DNA from: Methanotrichaceae archaeon
GTDB taxonomy: Archaea; Halobacteriota; Methanosarcinia; Methanotrichales; Methanotrichaceae
DNA length: 64,000 nucleotides
Assembly: GCA_963748825.1 (NCBI GenBank)
Contig: CAVVKN010000004.1
Span: 83,739 to 147,738 of the forward strand
Direction: 5' to 3'
Both the position numbers and the translations under genes were made by a program. The notes under the pieces are model-generated. The model saw only the letters and a program-made list of their open reading frames with translations. It searched no databases and was not told the origin of the DNA. Positions 47,586 to 56,110 of this stretch are shown piece by piece; the first letter of the stretch is position 1, and every line of letters begins with the position of its first letter.

Positions 47586-48791
47586 TTAATGCTTTGTGCG
47601 CGCCTCTGCGGCGCCCCGCGCCATGAGAAAGACTGCAACGCAGGCGGGAAGCTCCGTAGGACCCTCAACTAGATTGTAGCTATCTCCTCTCATCTGAGTT
47701 TTAAAGGGCTTTAAGATCTGCAACGGCACAGCCTCCTCTCCGAAGACCACGGCATCCTGCAGTGGATCGAAGTCCTCCAGGTCGCGCAGCGTAAGGGGCG
47801 TCACGCGCAGCCCCGAGCCGCCGTGCAGGCTGCCTGGACAGCGAATCAGCCGGCGCACGTCGGCTGTCACCGGCTCGTCGGTCTCGCCGCGCTCCTCATC
47901 TAAATTGAAGCCCACCTTCACGCCCTCACTGTCCAAGAACTCCACGAGAAGAAGCTTCCAGATAGCGGCACTGCCCCGAAAGAGATCCAGATTTCCCCGG
48001 CCGATCTCATCCAAAACATTTGCGTCCTGCAGGCTTTTGTAAAAGCTGGCGGCTTTTTTGGGCCCAATGCCTTTTCGTTTCGATAGAACCGCGATTGCCT
48101 CCGCCTCGCTCATGTGGCGCAGATCTTCGACAAAAGAGATGATGGATCGGTTGATCCTGCCTCCCCAGCCCGGCGCACCTGCAGGGGGCGCACGCAGCCG
48201 AAAAGCCCGATCTTTCCCCCAGTCGCCTTCCATGGGGGCCATGTGGATGAACAGATCCATGGTCAATCCCCGGCCTGCCAGATAGTCCACGATCTCCCGG
48301 CGCTCATCGCTGCCGAAACTAAAGACGCGCGGGTCTCGAACGTGGATGTGATAGCCCCGGCCCCCGGAAAAGACCACGCTCATTTTGCTCTCGCTGAAGC
48401 CGAAGTCGGATAGAAGAAAAGTCAGAAGCTTTTGCGTCTCCTTCTTTACCAACGCCAGCATCTCGCTGTAGCTCTTGGGCGCATTTCTCAGGTGATCGGC
48501 GTCCAGGTCGAAGATGAGGTCTGAGCCCTGCCAGAGCTTCTCTTTCATTGTGGGCGCGCCGGGGCGCTGATAGTAGGCAGCTGAATGATAGACGTGGCGC
48601 GGCACCATTGCCCGCACATAATCGACAAGCTCGCCACGCGAGAAGAAGGACTTATGCCGGCGCATGCCTGAATCGTCGAAAAAAAGAAAGCCCCACTCTC
48701 GGGAGGCAATGCTGGGAGGGGCATCCAGGGAGGATTCAATGTAATAGCCCCGGAACTTGGAGACCAGGAAATTATAGGTTAGGGCGTTCAT
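47586..48791 (-). CDS. priS: DNA primase small subunit
   Basis: REWGF, P.H.Y.S.AYY, DLIFDLDADH, FSGGRGYH.H, D..VT.D..RLIR.P.SLHG. Confidence 0.96.
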   Translation of the reverse strand: MNALTYNFLVSKFRGYYIESSLDAPPSIASREWGFLFFDDSGMRRHKSFFSRGELVDYVRAMVPRHVYHSAAYYQRPGAPTMKEKLWQGSDLIFDLDADHLRNAPKSYSEMLALVKKETQKLLTFLLSDFGFSESKMSVVFSGGRGYHIHVRDPRVFSFGSDERREIVDYLAGRGLTMDLFIHMAPMEGDWGKDRAFRLRAPPAGAPGWGGRINRSIISFVEDLRHMSEAEAIAVLSKRKGIGPKKAASFYKSLQDANVLDEIGRGNLDLFRGSAAIWKLLLVEFLDSEGVKVGFNLDEERGETDEPVTADVRRLIRCPGSLHGGSGLRVTPLTLRDLEDFDPLQDAVVFGEEAVPLQILKPFKTQMRGDSYNLVEGPTELPACVAVFLMARGAAEARTKH

Positions 48792-49542
48792 CCTCCCACC
48801 TTCCATAGATCTCCGGCCGGCGATCGGCAAAACAGGAAACCTCGCAGCGAAAAACATCCCGATCGACCAGGTCGATATCGGCCAGTATCAGCGTCTCCTC
48901 AGTCCCGGCCTCGGCCAACACCCGGCCACGAGCATCGATGATTAAAGAGCCTCCGCCGCGAGCCCAGTTGCAGGCCAGATGAGGCATCTGGTTTTCGATA
49001 GCCCGAGCCAGGCAGAGCGTGCGCCACTGCTCACGCCGCAGCCCGGGAAACTGGGCCACTGTAACCAGAAAATCTGCGCCCTGCAGGGCAAGGGAGCGGG
49101 CCACCTCAGGAAAGCGCAGGTCATAGCAGATCTGCAGGCCCGCCTGGCCCCACTTCGTGGCCACAGGCGAGATGTAGTCTCCGCCGTCGAAGTGCTCCTT
49201 CTCCTCACCAAAGGGGTGGATCTTGGGGCGAAGCTGCAGGCCGCCCGAGTCGAGGCAAAAGCCCAGATTCTGGCGGCCGCATCTCAGCGAGCCGACAAAT
49301 AGGCAATTGTGCTCCTCTGCCAGGGCCCGGAAAGGATCAAGCGATGGATAGGGCGAATGATCCTGGGCAGAAGAGGAGGACTGCAAAGAGAGCTCGTAGC
49401 AAAAGCCGGTCAGGAATAGTTCAGGAAGGACCAGGATCTGTGCTCCTTTGGCCAGTGCCGCGCCGGCCATCTGCAATGCTCGGGAGAGGTTCTCTTCGGT
49501 TTTACAGGGCTCAACCTGTTGCTGGAGGCAGGCGGCACGCAT
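48772..49542 (-). CDS. Carbon-nitrogen hydrolase (nitrilase family)
   Basis: LPELFLTGF, KIH.F, ICYDLRFPE, ARAIENQ. Confidence 0.9.
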   Translation of the reverse strand: MRAACLQQQVEPCKTEENLSRALQMAGAALAKGAQILVLPELFLTGFCYELSLQSSSSAQDHSPYPSLDPFRALAEEHNCLFVGSLRCGRQNLGFCLDSGGLQLRPKIHPFGEEKEHFDGGDYISPVATKWGQAGLQICYDLRFPEVARSLALQGADFLVTVAQFPGLRREQWRTLCLARAIENQMPHLACNWARGGGSLIIDARGRVLAEAGTEETLILADIDLVDRDVFRCEVSCFADRRPEIYGRWEDERPNL

Positions 49543-49643
49543 ACTAAAAAAATAGCAGGTTCGGATATATTAAGATGCACATAAGTCAACCTATTGGAAA
49601 AGAATAATGCTTTATATTCCGGAAAGACCCATGCCCCTTTGCA

Positions 49644-50477
49644 ATGTATCATAGACTGAAAAGTCGCATCTTTGGCGTCATGGAGCCTGGTGATCGGAAC
49701 AGCAAATTCTTTGACCCATTTATAATGGTACTGATATTATTAAATGTAGCCGTCGTGGTCCTGGAGACGGTAGACTGGCTTAATGCCAGTTATGCACAGC
49801 TCTTTCGCGTCTTCGATCTCTTTTCCGTCGCAGTCTTCACAGTTGAATATATCTTGCGCGCCTGGATCTGCACCGAAAATCCCAAGTTTAAAACTCCCAT
49901 CTCAGGAAGGCTGCATTATCTCATTACGCCCATGGCAATTGTTGATCTGATGGCTATACTGCCCTTCTATCTGCCATTCATCTTTCCAGAATTGCGGTTC
50001 ATTCGAGCCATACGCCTCTTCCGTTTGTTCCGGATTTTAAAACTGGCCAGATATTCTGATGCCCTCAAGACTTTTGCAGATGTCCTCAACTTGAAGAAGG
50101 AAGAACTCGGTGTGACATTCTTTGCCACTTTGATTTTGCTGGTTATATCATCCAGCATGGTCTACGAAGCAGAGAACGAGGTTCAACCAGAGGCTTTTGC
50201 CAATATTCCCGATGCCATGTGGTGGGGCGTAGTCACCTTGACCACCGTGGGCTACGGAGATATCTATCCTGTGACACCCATTGGAAAAATCATCGGCTCT
50301 TTTGTGGTAATATCTGGAATTGGCCTGTTTGCTCTTCCGGCGGGCATTCTGGCCTCGGGCTTCAACGAGGTGTTGCAGAGAAGAAGAGAGAAGAAAAGGA
50401 AGAAAATGATCTGTCCGCACTGCCACAGATACATCGGGGATTATGTAATGATGAAAGACGAGGAAGACGATGCCTGA
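49644..50477 (+). CDS. 6-TM voltage-gated-type potassium channel
   Basis: S4 R..R..R..R..K, WW.VVTLTTVGYGD filter, C-terminal CPHC. Confidence 0.93.
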   Translation: MYHRLKSRIFGVMEPGDRNSKFFDPFIMVLILLNVAVVVLETVDWLNASYAQLFRVFDLFSVAVFTVEYILRAWICTENPKFKTPISGRLHYLITPMAIVDLMAILPFYLPFIFPELRFIRAIRLFRLFRILKLARYSDALKTFADVLNLKKEELGVTFFATLILLVISSSMVYEAENEVQPEAFANIPDAMWWGVVTLTTVGYGDIYPVTPIGKIIGSFVVISGIGLFALPAGILASGFNEVLQRRREKKRKKMICPHCHRYIGDYVMMKDEEDDA

Positions 50478-50506
50478 TTTTGATCAATTCAGCCTGAGGA
50501 GAGAGC

Positions 50507-50683
50507 ATGAAAGCTTCTGAAGAAATTGTGAAGATCGAACTGGGGGAAGAGTTTCGGATCTGCCCCCAGTGCGGCTATGAGCTGGGCTTTCACAGCTCTT
50601 TTATGCGGACGGTGGAGGGCTACCGAATCATCCTCATCTGCCCGGAGTGCGGGGCACGGTACGACGTGGGATGGAGGATGTGA
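50507..50683 (+). CDS. Small zinc-ribbon protein (58 aa, not in ORF track)
   Basis: GAGGAG RBS; MKASEEIVKIELGEEFRICPQCGYELGFHSSF...ILICPECGARYDVGWRM; two CPxCG motifs. Confidence 0.8.
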   Translation: MKASEEIVKIELGEEFRICPQCGYELGFHSSFMRTVEGYRIILICPECGARYDVGWRM

Positions 50684-50762
50684 TGGCAATCAAACCATCA
50701 TTATCTATGGTAAGATGTATCTGACAAAGGATGCTAATATCTTTTGAGGATGAGCCAGATAG

Positions 50763-52760
50763 ATGACAGAAATTTCGGGCAAAAGTCCTGAACTTGAACC
50801 CTTTGCAGATGAGTATTCATCAATTCCAGATCGTTTCAATGATCTTTTCTCAAGACTCGGCTGGATCTACTATAAATCGTTTGATTCTAATATCGCCTTA
50901 AACGCTATCAACAGAGCAGAGTCTAATGACATTAACGGCGCGGAAGTAGATCTTATCGAGTATTATAATAATATTATAATAATAGATAACTTGCGGAAAT
51001 TAGGCGAATTAAAGGCATTTCGCTCCAGATGGCCTCTTGCACAAAAAGCGCTAATTGACTATGACGAAGAACGTTATCACTCAAGCATTCCTGTTGTTCT
51101 TGCTCTTCTTGACGGAATGGTTACGGAGACCTATTTGAATGCAGGAGGAGAGAAATTAAATGTATCTGCAGAAGATATAAATTTTAATGCATGGAATTCA
51201 ATCGCCAATCATAGCAAAGCGTTGAACGCCCTCGTTGGCATACTTAAAAAAGGACGATATAAAACTGTTACCGAGCAGATCGATAAACCATATCGCCACG
51301 GAATCCTGCACGGAATGGATCTCGGCTATGATAATAAGGCAGTCGCAGCCAAAGCTTGGGCAGCATTATTTGCTATTCGCGATTGGGCTGAAAAAGCTGA
51401 AACGGGGTTGTTGGATCTTCAATTTGATGGGAATACAAATAATAAAACCATCGAAATTAAAAGGACGAAAGGTCCGTTAATCCAAGACGTACCATCCATA
51501 AAAAATTTTCACGAAACCATCAAGAGCCTCAAGACTATAAAGGGCGCTATGCAAATTTTGCTTCCATTTTTAAGTCGGCTAAGAGTTGATACAAATCAAA
51601 TTAAAGAGGCCCTCCCAAAAATAGAATTACTTGAAGCAAGTGAAGTGATGCGATTCATCCCAGATCGTTTCAATGATCTATTCGCGGAGCGAGGCTGGAT
51701 CATCTATGAACTCATGAATCTTGAAGTTGTCAAGGCTGCGATCAAGAAAGCAGAGTCCGGAGATATTGATGGTGCTGAAACTGACCTAGTCAATTACTAT
51801 GATGAAAAAAATATCAGATTTAAAATCAATAGAATGAAAGATGTAAAGGCGTTCCGACCAAGGTGGCATCTTGCACAAAAGGCGCTAAATGATTATGTCG
51901 AGGGTCGCTATCATGCTTGCGTACCTGTTGTCCTTGCTCTGCTCGAGGGAATCGTCAATGAAGCGCATGAAAAAGGACGAGGCTCAAAACTCGGCTTTTC
52001 CGCCAAAGATGTCAATTTGGAAGCCTGGGATTCCATCTCTGGCCATGCCAAAGGGTTGAAGGTAATAGCCAGTGTATTCAATGAGGATCGTGGCAAAACA
52101 AATGTGGATCAGATAGCTATACCCTATCGAAACGGCATACTGCACGGAATGGATCTTGGCTACGACAATAAAATGGTCGCAGCTAAAACTTGGGCGGCGC
52201 TGTTTTCTATACGCGATTGGGCTATGAAGGCAGAACAGAGATTACTGGATCCACAACCTCCGGAAAATCCAATATCGTGGAGGCAAGTGATCAAACAGAT
52301 CAACGAAAACAAAGTTGATAAGCTAAAGCTGCAGAAATGGAAACCAAGAGTCATCAAGATCGGCCAGGATATTCCTGCAATCGGTGGTCCTAACGATTAT
52401 GAGGATTTTACGCCTGAAAAGACGCTTGCATTGTTCCTTTCAAAATGGAAGGATGCAAAGCCAAATTACGGTACCATGGCTGATTGCATCTTATTGAATT
52501 CTCGCGACAATAAAAATGCAATGCCTGCGCGCATAAGAAAAATATATAATTCGAAGCACTTGCGGTCATTCGAGTTCACCGGGATTCGAGACACAGCTGC
52601 AGCAAGAACGGTGATACAAGCGAATCTTGTCTATGAAGAATTTGGTAATCAAGTAGAAAAAACAGTCGAATTTATCATGATAAATAATGGCACAGATGAA
52701 CAACCTGCTGTTCGCGGACCAGGAAGCTGTTGGTTTATCCTATTTTGGGATATAGTATGA
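50763..52760 (+). CDS. Protein with two tandem HEPN-like domains (RHGILH, RNGILH) and a C-terminal alpha/beta domain
   Basis: Internal duplication with 834-bp offset; both copies retain RxxxxH; AT-richer than flanks. Confidence 0.7.
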   Translation: MTEISGKSPELEPFADEYSSIPDRFNDLFSRLGWIYYKSFDSNIALNAINRAESNDINGAEVDLIEYYNNIIIIDNLRKLGELKAFRSRWPLAQKALIDYDEERYHSSIPVVLALLDGMVTETYLNAGGEKLNVSAEDINFNAWNSIANHSKALNALVGILKKGRYKTVTEQIDKPYRHGILHGMDLGYDNKAVAAKAWAALFAIRDWAEKAETGLLDLQFDGNTNNKTIEIKRTKGPLIQDVPSIKNFHETIKSLKTIKGAMQILLPFLSRLRVDTNQIKEALPKIELLEASEVMRFIPDRFNDLFAERGWIIYELMNLEVVKAAIKKAESGDIDGAETDLVNYYDEKNIRFKINRMKDVKAFRPRWHLAQKALNDYVEGRYHACVPVVLALLEGIVNEAHEKGRGSKLGFSAKDVNLEAWDSISGHAKGLKVIASVFNEDRGKTNVDQIAIPYRNGILHGMDLGYDNKMVAAKTWAALFSIRDWAMKAEQRLLDPQPPENPISWRQVIKQINENKVDKLKLQKWKPRVIKIGQDIPAIGGPNDYEDFTPEKTLALFLSKWKDAKPNYGTMADCILLNSRDNKNAMPARIRKIYNSKHLRSFEFTGIRDTAAARTVIQANLVYEEFGNQVEKTVEFIMINNGTDEQPAVRGPGSCWFILFWDIV

Positions 52761-52773
52761 TCATAGTATGATC
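52752..52773. repeat. Perfect 11-bp tandem duplication ATAGTATGATC spanning the stop codon of the HEPN-like gene
   Basis: atagtatgatc 52752-62 and 52763-73. Confidence 0.85.
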
Positions 52774-52869
52774 TTGATAAACTAACTTCATATCCGGTCC
52801 AATGCTGGCAAAAGCCACATCATCAAGGCCCTTGTGGGCTTATGCCAGAACGTGAAGACATTGATATAC

Positions 52870-52890
52870 TTGCAATTCATTGTAATACAA
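52870..52890. promoter_or_regulatory. Putative RHH antitoxin operator (TTGTA-A-TACAA palindrome with degenerate upstream copy TTGCAATTCAT)
   Basis: Directly between a TTGATATA TATA-like box and the antitoxin start. Confidence 0.6.
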
Positions 52891-52891
52891 G

Positions 52892-53125
52892 GTGATTGAG
52901 ATTTCCACTTCTGTATCGATTCGGCTTCCTGATGACATGGCAGACAGCCTGAAGAGCCTCTCTGAAGCTATAGACCGCTCCAAGGCGTATATCATTAAGA
53001 AAGCATTGCAGGCATATCTTGAGGATTATTCAGATTACCTGATTGCCCAGGAACGTTTGAACGACAAAAACGATAAAGTAGTATCCTGCGACGAGATGAG
53101 GGAACTAATTGGCCTGCAGAATTGA
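52892..53125 (+). CDS. Ribbon-helix-helix antitoxin (CopG/RelB-like)
   Basis: SVSIRLP....L..L....RSK.YII..AL..YLED; overlaps toxin. Confidence 0.88.
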   Translation: MIEISTSVSIRLPDDMADSLKSLSEAIDRSKAYIIKKALQAYLEDYSDYLIAQERLNDKNDKVVSCDEMRELIGLQN

Positions 53126-53360
53126 GTACAAATCATCTGTGGCCCATGACCTGAAGAATCTAGACAAGGCTGTTGCCAAGAGAGTAATCAAAGAGATGGA
53201 AGAGGCGTTATCCTGCGATCCGGACTGCGGAGAGGCGCTCACAGGGCAATTCAAAGGACTGTTCAAACTGCGCATAGGAGAATACCGGGTCGTTTATTCC
53301 AAGAAACAGGGCGGTGTATTAGTATTGCGAATCAGAAATCGCAGCAAGGTATATAGATAA
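53109..53360 (+). CDS. RelE/ParE-family toxin
   Basis: L.G...GL.KLRIG.YRVVY, V..I..R..VY. Confidence 0.9.
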   Translation: MACRIEYKSSVAHDLKNLDKAVAKRVIKEMEEALSCDPDCGEALTGQFKGLFKLRIGEYRVVYSKKQGGVLVLRIRNRSKVYR

Positions 53361-53436
53361 AATGGTTTGATCCCAGATGTTTGCAGAGAATATTATCAGC
53401 AAGAAATAAATATAATGAGGGAGAAAAGATCCTGCG

Positions 53437-54510
53437 ATGAAAAAGAGAGCAAGAACTTCGCGAGAGCTTCCCACGGTTGATGACATTCTCCTGAGGTTTG
53501 AGCAGGAGCTCGCAGACCCTGATAATATCGAAACCATTTCGGTTCTGGGAACAACGCTTGGTAGATGTGGCCGTTTGGATGAAGCAATACAGCAATTCGA
53601 CCGTGCCATTGAAATCGATCCTAATTTCTGGGACGCATGGTTCAACAAAGGAATCGCTCTAATCAACAAAAAAGAAGATGCGAGAGCCCTGGAATGCTTC
53701 CAGATGGCAGCTTCCATAGATCCAAATACATCTACCCCATGGCTCAAAATGGGCGAAATCCATAAGCGAATGCACAATTTTGATAAAGCCCTTGAATGCC
53801 TGAATAAGTGCTGGGCCATTGACCCGGAAAATACCTATGCACTTGGGGTGAAACTGGAGATCTTCCTCGAAAAAGGAGAACCGGAAAAGGCTCTGCAAGT
53901 TATAGATAAAGCTCTGGAGATCGGCCAGGAGGATAGCAGCTTCATGGTGCGCAAGGGAGAGATCCTGTCATCCCTGGGCCGTCATGATCAAGCGCTTCCC
54001 TGTTTTGATGAAGCTCTGAAAATTAGCCCTGAGGTTACTATAGCCTTGTACGGCAAAGGATCGATAAATTTCCAGAAGGGCCTTTATGAAGAAGCTCTGC
54101 AATGCTTTGAAACGGCCATAAAAATTGATGGCGAATACTATGACGCATCAAGGGGGAAAGCCTTTGCTTTACTCGCCCTGGAGAGATACCACCCAGCCTT
54201 GAAGGAATTCCAGATTCTGACAAAGAGGTACTCGGAATCTTTCGAATTCAGCATGGGCAAGGGCCTGGCCCAGATGGGCTTGCGAAGACACCCTGAGGCG
54301 CTCAAATTCCTGGACAGAGCCATACGCCTGTGTCCAGACAATGCCGACGCCTGGCAAGAAAAAGGAAAGCTGCTCCAGAAAATGGGCAGAGAGGAGGAGG
54401 CTAAATCCGCATTTTCCGAGGCTCAAAGGCAGAAAGAGGTCGGTAAGAGAAGTTGCCCATATTGGCCTAATGATTTTGCTCAAATTCAGCACGTGGACTT
54501 CATAAATTGA
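53437..54510 (+). CDS. Tetratricopeptide-repeat protein (about 9 TPRs)
   Basis: Repeated W..KG..L......A...F..A....P. Confidence 0.9.
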   Translation: MKKRARTSRELPTVDDILLRFEQELADPDNIETISVLGTTLGRCGRLDEAIQQFDRAIEIDPNFWDAWFNKGIALINKKEDARALECFQMAASIDPNTSTPWLKMGEIHKRMHNFDKALECLNKCWAIDPENTYALGVKLEIFLEKGEPEKALQVIDKALEIGQEDSSFMVRKGEILSSLGRHDQALPCFDEALKISPEVTIALYGKGSINFQKGLYEEALQCFETAIKIDGEYYDASRGKAFALLALERYHPALKEFQILTKRYSESFEFSMGKGLAQMGLRRHPEALKFLDRAIRLCPDNADAWQEKGKLLQKMGREEEAKSAFSEAQRQKEVGKRSCPYWPNDFAQIQHVDFIN

Positions 54511-54587
54511 ATATCTTGGGCAAAAAGGACCTGGAAGAAGAGCAAGTATCGAATCGATTGGTACCGTTATCCCTTGCCAGATCCTTT

Positions 54588-55298
54588 CTATCTCGCCATC
54601 GCCTTTTTTCTCATCTCCACCGGCATCTTCTCGATGGCATAGCGCAGCGCCGTCCTCGGCATCTTTTCCTTCCACCTCATCACGTAGTCGAAGACCTCCG
54701 CCTGGTGTTTTTTGCTCGCCTCCTTGAGCATCCAGCCGTAGCCCTTCTGCACCATGTCGTCTTTGTCCATGAGGAGAATGTCCGAGATCTCAAAAACCTC
54801 CTTCAAAAATGCCCCCTTCCGGGCGGGAAGGATGAGCGTCACGGCCGAGGCGCGCCGCAGCCACCTGTTCTCCGATCGGGCCCAGACCGCCAGGCTTTCG
54901 ATAAACTGCGGATACATCTCCACGAAAGTGCCCAGGGTGTGGTTGCAGAGAGTGTCGCACTTGGCCCAGTTGTCCACATAGAGATCCACCCATCTCTCGA
55001 ATACAAAAAAGTCCTCAGGCACGAACTGGCGCCGCAGAGAGTAGGACCATTCGAAGGCAATGAAGGCCTCTTCCCCGTAGTTTGTTTGCAGTAGATTTTC
55101 ACATAGAGAGAAGATCTCTTTTTTGTCTCGACCTTTTATCTCCCGGAAGTGTTTGGCAGCGATTTTTTTGACTAGGGCACCCTTTACGCCATGGACCTTA
55201 ACCATCTCCTTGAAGAAGCGTTGAGCGCTCTCCCGAGCCTTCTCGTCAATACTCTGCAGCAGCTCCTGCCGCACGGCCGCAAGGACATCCCTTTCCAT
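54588..55298 (-). CDS. DNA alkylation repair protein (AlkD-like)
   Basis: [40 protein letters not shown]. Confidence 0.9.
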
Positions 55299-55345
55299 AT
55301 TTTCACCATTGGGTTTATCTTTATCAAAAAATCTTCGCTAATGAC

Positions 55346-56110
55346 ATGCTGCAATTCGTCCTCACAGTCGCCGCGGCAAAGCGCCTGATAGGCAAAGCCC
55401 TGGCGGCCCATCCGGCCGTTAAGGCTGCGTCGCGGACCGCCACCCTGGTCATCATCGCCGGAACCACCAACAGCTACGTGGCTGAGGAGATATTGAGAAA
55501 ACTGGGCCAGGCGGAGAGCTTCTCCAAAAAACGATTCTTTCGCGGCATCGTCCTGCCGCCGGGAAGGACCACGGAGACCGGAAGGCTGCCGGAGGAGAGC
55601 GGTTTTCCCGGCGATGTAGTGATAGTAAACGGCATCTGGCAGAAAGGCAAGACTATTTTCGACGTTGGGGACGGCCTGAGAGAGGGAGACATCATCCTGA
55701 AGGGGGCGAATGCCCTCGACCTGACCAGAAAGCAGGCGGCAGTTCTCATCGGCCATCCACAGGGAGGAACGACTATCACGACCCTGCAGGCGGCTGTGGG
55801 CCGCAGGGTGCGGCTCATCCTGCCTGTGGGCCTGGAAAAGCGCGTGCCAGGCGATCTGATGGAGCTGGCCGCCCGGATGAATGCGCCAGGGAGCAGCGGC
55901 TTTCGGCTGCTGCCGGTACCGGGAGAGGTCTTCACCGAGATCGATGCCATACGGCTTCTTTGCGGAGCAGAGGCAGAGATGGTGGCTGCGGGCGGGGTAG
56001 GAGGCGCGGAGGGTGCGGTCTGGCTGGCCTTGAGCGGAAGCGAGGAGCAGATGGCAAGGGCAGAAGCGCTGATGAGGGAGGTTTCATGTGAGAAGGGATT
56101 TGAGATGTGA
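55346..56110 (+). CDS. Conserved hypothetical protein (CoA-transferase/NagB-like fold suspected)
   Basis: GTTN.YV.EE, D...KGANA, GGT, PVGLEK, AGG..GAEG. Confidence 0.75.

Follow-up and report, generated by a model that had tools for sequence, protein, structure and literature searches.

Ribonucleases (RNases) of the HEPN superfamily need two RxxxxH motifs for each active site, and nearly all of them act as homodimers. The well-known exception is Cas13, for which an origin by fusion of two HEPN genes has been hypothesised from distant comparisons. The present work describes a gene in which two HEPN-like units lie in one polypeptide and whose single-unit relatives are still present. The gene occupies positions 50763-52760 on the plus strand of a 64,000-nucleotide (nt) stretch of a Methanotrichaceae archaeon genome (assembly GCA_963748825.1, contig CAVVKN010000004.1; hereafter the window) and encodes 665 amino acids (aa) followed by a stop codon. 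An earlier reading of the letters alone (the original prediction) had taken its product for a pseudo-dimeric RNase and a candidate defence or toxin effector. The product (P0001, hereafter the query) is a two-unit member of an unnamed HEPN-like/NTF2-like family. What is new is a family-level variant within the known HEPN superfamily, with repeated conversion from one unit to two that parallels the origin proposed for Cas13.

In the available part of the 2013 analysis of the superfamily (PMC3710099), an N, D or H typically stands right after the R of the Rx4-6H motif, helices 2 and 3 are frequently separated by an insert, helix 4 often has a kink, and an acidic residue of helix 2 is conserved in many families, typically as Ex3[KR]. 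The same text counts DUF4209 (C6orf70), whose Rx4-6H is conserved, among the HEPN families and reports it in operons related to restriction-modification (R-M). The family of the query resembles the HEPN RNases described there (RnlA/LsoA, Csm6/Csx1, HepT and PrrC/RloC) in its all-helical, superposing core and in an invariant Rx4H with N or H after the R. The model of its core also shows the motif within a short helix, from which a loop leads to the last helix, and an insert between helices 2 and 3, with a candidate for the acidic residue in predicted helix 2. The gene is likewise found beside R-M and other defence genes. Unlike the named HEPN families, with which it has no sequence-profile similarity, the query family carries extra N-terminal helices and a helical hairpin. 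Its partner domain is NTF2-like rather than a minimal nucleotidyltransferase (MNT), CARF, ABC-ATPase or kinase, and it has no conserved antitoxin or partner; the adjacent MNT antitoxin of HepT/MntA (HEPN-MNT) is not seen at the loci sampled. In the case of DUF4209 (PF13910), the motif of archaeal members is similar, R-[NH]-x-[IV]-x-H (RHRVAH and RNKIAHG, compared with RNGILHG), and a viral model matches the whole unit in structure. This likeness is structural only, as PF13910 gives no score. The DUF4209 proteins fetched are 520-620 aa long with the motif near the C-terminus, and an NTF2-like tail was not noted in them.

The precedent for two HEPN domains in one chain is Cas13, for which the available text of PMC12165695 gives intramolecular HEPN pairing and a proposed origin by fusion of two related HEPN genes. 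The query shares with Cas13 the presence of two HEPN-type domains in one polypeptide and, it appears, a two-unit form made by joining two closely related cores, one family still having single-unit and double-unit forms. It is much smaller (665 aa), has no REC-like lobe, and its units are contiguous colinear copies. No cas genes lie nearby, no CRISPR-like repeat array was found in positions 40000-64000 of the window, and Rfam gave no match at E ≤ 1 in positions 48000-56000, which sets the locus apart from type VI systems. No homology of the query to Cas13 or to AbiD/F was detected.

The open reading frame (ORF) starts with ATG and is the longest open frame in its region. When residues 1-278 were compared with residues 279-665 by BLASTP, residues 21-220 aligned with residues 299-498 at 112 of 200 identical positions (56%), with no gaps and an E-value of 7e-78. 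Two pairs of direct DNA repeats have the same spacing of 834 nt, at 50823-50876/51657-51710 (54 nt, 78%) and at 51273-51422/52107-52256 (150 nt, 75%). These results confirm the two copies at an 834-bp offset that the original prediction had described, and the exact 20-mer match quoted with it falls within the first repeat pair. Its lengths needed adjustment, as each unit has 200 rather than 190 residues and the C-terminal domain 167 rather than 150. The RxxxxH motif that it had noticed in both copies was found as RHGILH at residues 178-183 and as RNGILH at residues 456-461.

In the query, a leader of 20 aa and an additional core precede what is otherwise a complete single-unit protein. Compared by eye with the consensus, the leader (aa 1-20, 50763-50822) is similar to no more than the final ~17 residues of the N-terminal extension seen in the family, and unit 1 therefore lacks a full hairpin of its own. 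The unit 1 core (aa 21-220, 50823-51422) comprises pre-HEPN helices at ~21-80 and a HEPN-like bundle at ~81-220, with motif 1 (R178 to H183) at 51294-51311. It is followed by a linker (aa 221-298, 51423-51656), which from about residue 238 corresponds to the N-terminal helical-hairpin extension of single-unit relatives. The linker carries an I-x-D-I/V-P-S motif at 240-245, and single-unit orthologues start matching at query residues 233-239. The unit 2 core (aa 299-498, 51657-52256) is 81% identical to the single-unit protein P0011 and holds a HEPN-like bundle at ~359-492, with motif 2 (R456 to H461) at 52128-52145. The C-terminal domain (aa 499-665, 52257-52757) has an NTF2-like fold. All of these features lie on the plus strand. 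At the end of the gene, an 11-bp perfect tandem direct repeat (ATAGTATGATC, two copies) at 52752-52773 overlaps the stop codon.

The query is not an orphan but the doubled member of a large single-unit family. A homologue search gave 956 matches, mostly of 420-440 aa and covering 64-65% of the query (residues ~238-665). The typical member has ~430 aa, with an N-terminal helical hairpin (~60), one core (~200) and a C-terminal domain (~165). Since nearly all homologues have this length and a single core, the single-unit form is taken as ancestral. An exhaustive search of 1.84 billion representatives clustered at 50% identity gave 1457 clusters at E ≤ 1e-3, of which 579 also pass E ≤ 1e-30; among the best 150 of the 1457, only two proteins, P0010 and P0123, have two units. 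Nine two-unit proteins of 628-666 aa were found among the proteins listed (P0001-P0008 and P0010), and the eight relatives of the query are 55-80% identical to it, with intact frames and the same architecture. No longer or fused architectures (801-2285 aa) were found, which is weak evidence.

Searches of the query against Pfam, PADLOC, NCBIfam and PHROGs gave no meaningful match, and none of the families of PADLOC-DB 2.0.0 matched it at E ≤ 10. A profile search of PDB sequences gave a chance match only (E 1.5), and ESM Atlas returned only clusters of hypothetical proteins. The family is patchily distributed across bacteria and archaea. Of 400 candidate stretches in reference genomes, 334 proved to be family copies, with hosts among Methanotrichaceae, haloarchaea, Acidobacteriota, cyanobacteria, Chloroflexota, Paenibacillus, Planctomycetota, Bacteroidota and Proteobacteria, and every named copy is annotated as 'hypothetical protein'. 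Within Methanotrichaceae, 14 of 105 genomes have a match (12 of the 64 high-quality ones), and the two-unit form is present only in G000 and G089. Four of the 14 carry broken copies, which are fragmented, truncated or stop-containing (G086:C1:1550657-1552608, G100:C41:295-1316, G092:C1:498677-498904 and G070:C219:22-1035). This suggests frequent decay of the gene in Methanotrichaceae.

Conservation was assessed in two alignments. Both R456 and H461 are present in all 111 sequences of the first, which comprises 110 single-unit relatives and unit 2 of the query, and the residue after the motif R is N in 75 and H in 36. The second holds 149 sequences, mostly from a word-index-free search, and is more diverse, reaching down to 31% identity. 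Its sole invariant positions are R367, R456, G458, H461, G462 and K475, and the family motif R[NH]GI[LM]HG has its R and H in 149 of 149. Conservation of the motif in homologues, a point on which the original prediction depended, is thus strict, and the polar N or H after the R agrees with the published HEPN form. All six are retained in unit 1, as are 35 of the 37 positions that are invariant or nearly so, and both motifs are kept in all nine two-unit proteins. When compared with L001, the closest orthologue (80% identity overall), the ratio of nonsynonymous to synonymous substitution rates (dN/dS) stands at 0.38 in unit 1 and at 0.14 in unit 2, so that both cores look to be under purifying selection.

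The fold of the core was examined with a model of residues 238-500, which, when refolded alone with the 149-sequence alignment, reached a predicted local distance difference test (pLDDT) score of 97.2 and a predicted template modelling (pTM) score of 0.92. In unit numbering, DSSP assigns helices at 128-142 and 146-169, a long insert (170-218) in which W, S and H residues are conserved, a short helix (219-223) that holds R219..H224, a loop at 225-232, and helices at 233-245 and 247-254. In the model the motif is therefore placed as in the published HEPN form, in a short helix followed by a loop to the last helix. Predicted helix 2 carries acidic residues at query position 395 (D in 99% of relatives) and at E400 (at least 90%); the basic residue at +4 is not conserved.

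A Foldseek-independent search of 48,161 chains was performed with the unit model. Among the best 50 matches, 44 cover the N-terminal hairpin only (residues ~1-75) and six cover the core, all of them HEPN proteins: Roquin 4txa (Z 7.3, root-mean-square deviation 4.4, 133 residues aligned), Roquin 4qik (Z 7.0), AF_0298 2hsb (Z 6.3, 115 of 126 aligned), the sacsin HEPN domain 3o10 (Z 6.3, 117 of 139), RnlA 6y2r (Z 6.1, 116 aligned) and ST0689 1wol (Z 5.9, 109 of 122). The Csm6 HEPN domain 6tug, taken from Foldseek's own list, superposes with Z 5.0 over 113 residues. In a search of viral models (BFVD), the best match, to a DUF4209 protein of a phage, extends over the whole unit (E 1e-4, probability 1.00, TM-score ~0.5). 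Although each Z score is weak alone, no other fold class was found over the core, and for this reason the assignment by fold carries weight. The repeat units thus model as HEPN-like folds, as had been anticipated.

Residues ~527-665 superpose on NTF2-like structures with Z scores of 9-11.4 over 100-110 residues of the C-terminal 140. The matches include YchJ 9vxg_A (Z 11.4, 110 of 131 aligned), the N-domain of PBP5 (Z 11.3), and the ketosteroid-isomerase-like protein 3d9r and SEC-C-associated proteins (Z 9.9). In all, 135 chains reach Z ≥ 8, ketosteroid-isomerase-like and dehydratase folds among them, and the tail was the only part matched when the full-length model was searched against PDB with Foldseek. 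Weak Pfam matches to MecA_N, the domain of PBP2a and PBP5, occur in nine of 110 members (best E 1.3e-4); weak matches to DUF6483 were also seen, in 11 of 110 (best E 0.0039). Unlike NTF2-like enzymes, the tail lacks their catalytic signature. The fusion of an NTF2-like domain to a HEPN-like nuclease core was not found in the literature searched.

The tail is the most variable module of the family apart from the N-terminal hairpin, with a mean pairwise identity of 26%, compared to 48% for the HEPN core. Synonymous divergence from L001 amounts to 1.40 for the tail, compared to 0.17-0.22 for the two cores. The query tail is 74-80% identical to the tails of the single-unit proteins P0011-P0016 and 55-58% identical to those of the other two-unit proteins, while the closest relative of unit 1 is P0003 (92%) and that of unit 2 is P0002 (93%). 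From these identities and divergences the gene is seen to be a recombinational mosaic, with at least two tail types common to single-unit and two-unit alleles. The suggestion of a possible sensor is supported, in that the C-terminal domain has the character of a variable module for sensing or specificity.

The history of the doubling was addressed through gene order and phylogeny. The window, L001 (the two-unit locus of G089) and the single-unit loci L002 and L003 share the order of channel gene, zinc-ribbon ORF, family gene and, later, a DNA-alkylation-repair gene; because this order is common to two-unit and single-unit loci, the doubling is taken to have happened in place. Trees were built with FastTree from 88 cores (all 20 of the two-unit proteins, 21 from close single-unit proteins and one in five of the remaining 234) and with IQ-TREE from 35 chosen core rows. 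Unit 1 sequences of the query clade group with the single-unit protein P0018 (99/94), and five close unit 2 sequences form a clade of their own (99/100). The latter falls within a 17-row clade (90/87) together with unit 2 of P0010, which pairs with P0157, and the single-unit proteins P0011, P0014 and P0017. An exclusive clade of units 1 and 2 was rejected by the approximately unbiased (AU) test (difference in log-likelihood 41.6, p 0.014), a result to be read with the long unit 1 branches in mind and with a group that was defined after the first tree, though it had been the hypothesis of the original prediction.

The partial duplication of an ancestor that had been proposed does not hold as a simple tandem event, since a second core was placed before a complete single-unit protein. 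The AU result points either to fusion with a P0018-like paralogue or to very asymmetric divergence. Fusion of two closely related paralogous cores is nominally favoured as the route, with duplication and subsequent, strongly asymmetric divergence of the units as a plausible second one. In the case of P0123, the two units are sisters (100/100) and distant from the query clade, and its doubling is therefore regarded as independent. P0123 has the same layout of core, ~75 aa with the I-x-D-I-P N-terminal motif, core and tail, so the two-unit architecture is convergent. One 97-nt contig from X3, of a relative 90-95% alike, joins position 50674 to position 52847 and skips 2172 bases, which are exactly this gene. 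Other X3 contigs cover the gene, and the skipping contig has 36 nt on its shorter side; it gives a weak hint of an empty-site allele and of a presence/absence polymorphism.

Gene context was sampled at 80 loci, whose 866 ORFs were clustered all-against-all, and 148 immediate neighbours from 77 of these loci were compared with Pfam and PADLOC. The gene stands alone, without a conserved partner; the best non-self cluster, which includes a type I methylase, occurs in seven of the 80 loci. No nucleotidyltransferase is present among the 148 neighbours except RlaP in L072, in keeping with the difference from HEPN-MNT. A Pfam match at 1e-5 was obtained for 58 of the 148, among them ParE, PIN, HEPN_AbiU2, Uma2, transposases and an integrase. 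PADLOC matches at 1e-10 were obtained for 19, and after removal of four generic ones (TPR twice, a ClpB-like protein and IstB) 15 remain, in 14 of 77 loci. These are PifA, PDC-S16, TIR, a type I methyltransferase and restriction endonuclease, DUF4238-Pers (twice), Hhe/PDC-S37, Old/AriA-like (twice), PDC-M23A, PDC-S14, DitA, a PLD nuclease and SoFic. The copy on an Acidovorax plasmid is flanked by a PIN protein and a type I R-M system. A role as a defence effector, as had been suggested, accords with the partly defence-like context; the protein itself matches no defence family in PADLOC.

Some neighbours are of interest in their own right. At L033 (7347-8822) the neighbouring gene joins an FtsZ/tubulin GTPase to a C-terminal TIR domain, and the TIR part matches the PADLOC Aga_TIR models. 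In two Desulfuromonadaceae loci (L048:3943-8105 and L058:3872-8223) the family gene directly follows an Old/AriA/GajA-like ATPase, and at L048 it directly precedes a PDC-M23A candidate defence protein. The ATPase and the family gene may form a multi-gene arrangement at these two loci.

Genes for RNA repair adjoin the family gene at five of the 77 loci. In the Bacteroidota locus L072 (1764-7154), a tight same-strand series consists of an AAA_33 kinase, a Thg1-like 3'-5' polymerase, an ORF without a Pfam match, a 2OG-Fe(II) oxygenase, RlaP, an RlaP-like protein and, last, the family gene; this cluster looks like an RNA damage/repair operon. Ro60 lies immediately upstream in L031 and L045, the latter of which also has RtcB 3.7 kb downstream, and RtcB adjoins the family gene in L014 and L036.

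Within the window, the gene belongs to an AT-rich accessory island at ~49500-54500 (GC 41-49%), which holds an ion channel gene, a zinc-ribbon ORF, the gene itself, an RHH/ParE pair and a TPR protein. The AT-richness ascribed to the gene by the original prediction is real (GC 41-44% across the gene, compared to 55-62% in the aIF2alpha/GINS/primase/nitrilase flank) but is a property of the island and not of the gene alone. The zinc-ribbon-like ORF (50507-50683, plus strand) encodes 58 aa with two CxxC pairs between the ion channel and the HEPN-like gene, and it is conserved in L001, L002 and L003, where it again follows the channel gene and has 82-88% amino acid identity. Directly downstream of the gene are an RHH (CopG/ParD-like) antitoxin (52892-53125, plus strand) and its paired ParE toxin (53109-53360, plus strand), followed by a TPR gene (53437-54510). 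Because the RHH/ParE pair and the TPR gene are differently arranged or absent in L001-L003, this spot appears to accumulate accessory genes. A sigma-70 promoter scan was set aside, as that model is not applicable to an archaeon.

The reading favoured here is that the query is a stand-alone, single-chain, two-domain HEPN-like RNase with a C-terminal NTF2-like sensor or specificity domain, a proposition judged to be evenly balanced between holding and failing. This two-HEPN-like protein is real and intact, and probably functional as well; an RNase function and a role in defence or stress are plausible for it. In a mechanism drawn from what is known of HEPN enzymes (available parts of PMC3710099 and PMC12165695), single-unit members would homodimerise and, like other HEPN RNases, combine two Rx4H motifs in each composite active site. 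The two cores of the doubled protein would pair intramolecularly, in the manner of Cas13. RNA would be cut independently of metal to leave 2',3'-cyclic phosphate ends, with tRNA or rRNA as the likeliest targets. The enzyme would remain inactive until its NTF2-like domain senses a ligand or an invader protein, and would then serve as an effector of growth arrest triggered by stress or infection. The RNA ends might later be repaired by the cell, as RtcB-type ligases reseal cyclic-phosphate ends, and such repairable ends would fit the recurrent adjacency of RtcB, Ro60 and RlaP/Thg1 genes.

Several observations weigh against this reading. In the full-length model (pLDDT 79, pTM 0.50) the packing of the domains is uncertain, and at both motif loops pLDDT falls below 50-65. 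The Z scores over the core (5.0-7.3 for seven structures) lie below 8, in a range possible for generic helical bundles, and a Foldseek search of PDB with the unit model gave no match (best E 3). No HEPN Pfam model matched the query at E ≤ 10, and none is among the 25 most frequent of the 106 families matched by the 110 members. The family profile gave an hhalign probability of 1.1% against 12 PF05168 proteins from related genomes and of 0.5% against 19 DUF4209 proteins. Given these Pfam and hhalign results, the family is HEPN-like by fold and motif, without membership in any named family tested. With regard to a role in defence, 50,697 phage records yielded no family copy and, of 72,556 plasmids, only seven carry one; in Methanotrichaceae the gene is kept at one syntenic locus, unlike a freshly mobile defence island. 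The 14 of 77 defence-adjacent loci are a raw count without a measured baseline. No antitoxin-like conserved neighbour was found at the sampled loci, so any restraint of a toxic RNase would be purely conjectural. None of the 21 runs listed is an RNA run with the gene, and the one RNA run compared with the gene gave 0 contigs; neither result bears on expression.

The weakness of the profile and fold matches also bears on whether the core merely resembles HEPN. In that case the protein could be a non-nucleolytic binding or regulatory protein, or could perform other chemistry through the invariant R, H and K, one conceivable substrate being a nucleotide-derived signal that the NTF2-like domain binds. 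HEPN domains of sacsin and Roquin are non-nucleolytic, the top two PDB matches are Roquin, which binds RNA and is not catalytic, and NTF2-like domains commonly bind small molecules, as the enzyme folds among the tail matches illustrate. Against this, every match that covers the core is a HEPN protein, with the true RNases RnlA and Csm6 among them, and the strict invariance of the R, the polar N or H and the H is, in the available text of PMC3710099, the mark of a catalytically active HEPN domain. This alternative is considered improbable. The RNA-repair neighbours lend themselves to a different proposal, in which the protein is no toxin or defence effector but an accessory enzyme of RNA repair or processing, whose core trims or recognises damaged ends for RtcB, RlaP or Thg1-type enzymes and whose NTF2-like domain binds RNA or a partner. 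The L072 cluster, which ends with the family gene, and the Ro60 or RtcB genes at L031, L045, L014 and L036 are consistent with it, as is retention of the gene at one locus across Methanotrichaceae, and RlaP is named for its association with RNA ligases in the available part of a preprint (10.64898/2025.12.29.696909). Such loci are nevertheless few, three of the five being from Acidobacteriota (L031, L036 and L045), and are outnumbered by defence-adjacent ones; no repair gene lies near the gene in the window, and toxin RNases too occur beside repair genes. The patchy presence, decayed copies and swapped hypervariable tail are typical of conflict genes and not of housekeeping ones, and an accessory repair enzyme seems an unlikely explanation.

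An assembly artefact, or a decaying pseudogene with a non-functional unit 1, was also considered. Public contigs from X1 and X2 match the gene at 100% over 174-602 nt and leave 51498-51807 uncovered, so the junction of the units is unbridged, and unit 1 evolves faster, with the higher dN/dS and longer branches. Yet the units are only 56% identical, and for that reason an assembler could not have collapsed or expanded them, and the nine two-unit proteins come from separate sources with intact frames. A second genome also has the two-unit form at this locus. For unit 1, the retention of its invariant and conserved residues and a dN/dS well below 1 argue against decay. This explanation is very improbable, and the duplication is not regarded as an artefact.

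The stand-alone two-domain RNase may also be seen within a wider proposal: an undescribed HEPN family that has converted a homodimeric RNase to a single-chain pseudo-dimer at least twice, with single-unit and double-unit alleles at one locus exchanging NTF2-like sensors, would be a living model of the fusion proposed for the origin of Cas13 and a stand-alone immune or stress RNase coupled to RtcB/Ro60/RlaP repair. In this full form the proposal is tentative and somewhat doubtful. Single-unit and double-unit states coexist in one close gene family and at one locus, and fusion has recurred. As a consequence, the effects of fusion, such as asymmetric divergence of the sites, altered regulation and release from the need to dimerise, are directly measurable in this family. 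The family could reasonably be proposed as a new single-gene nuclease of defence or stress response, and as a compact scaffold for RNA tools. The query demonstrates how single-chain double nucleases such as Cas13 could arise.

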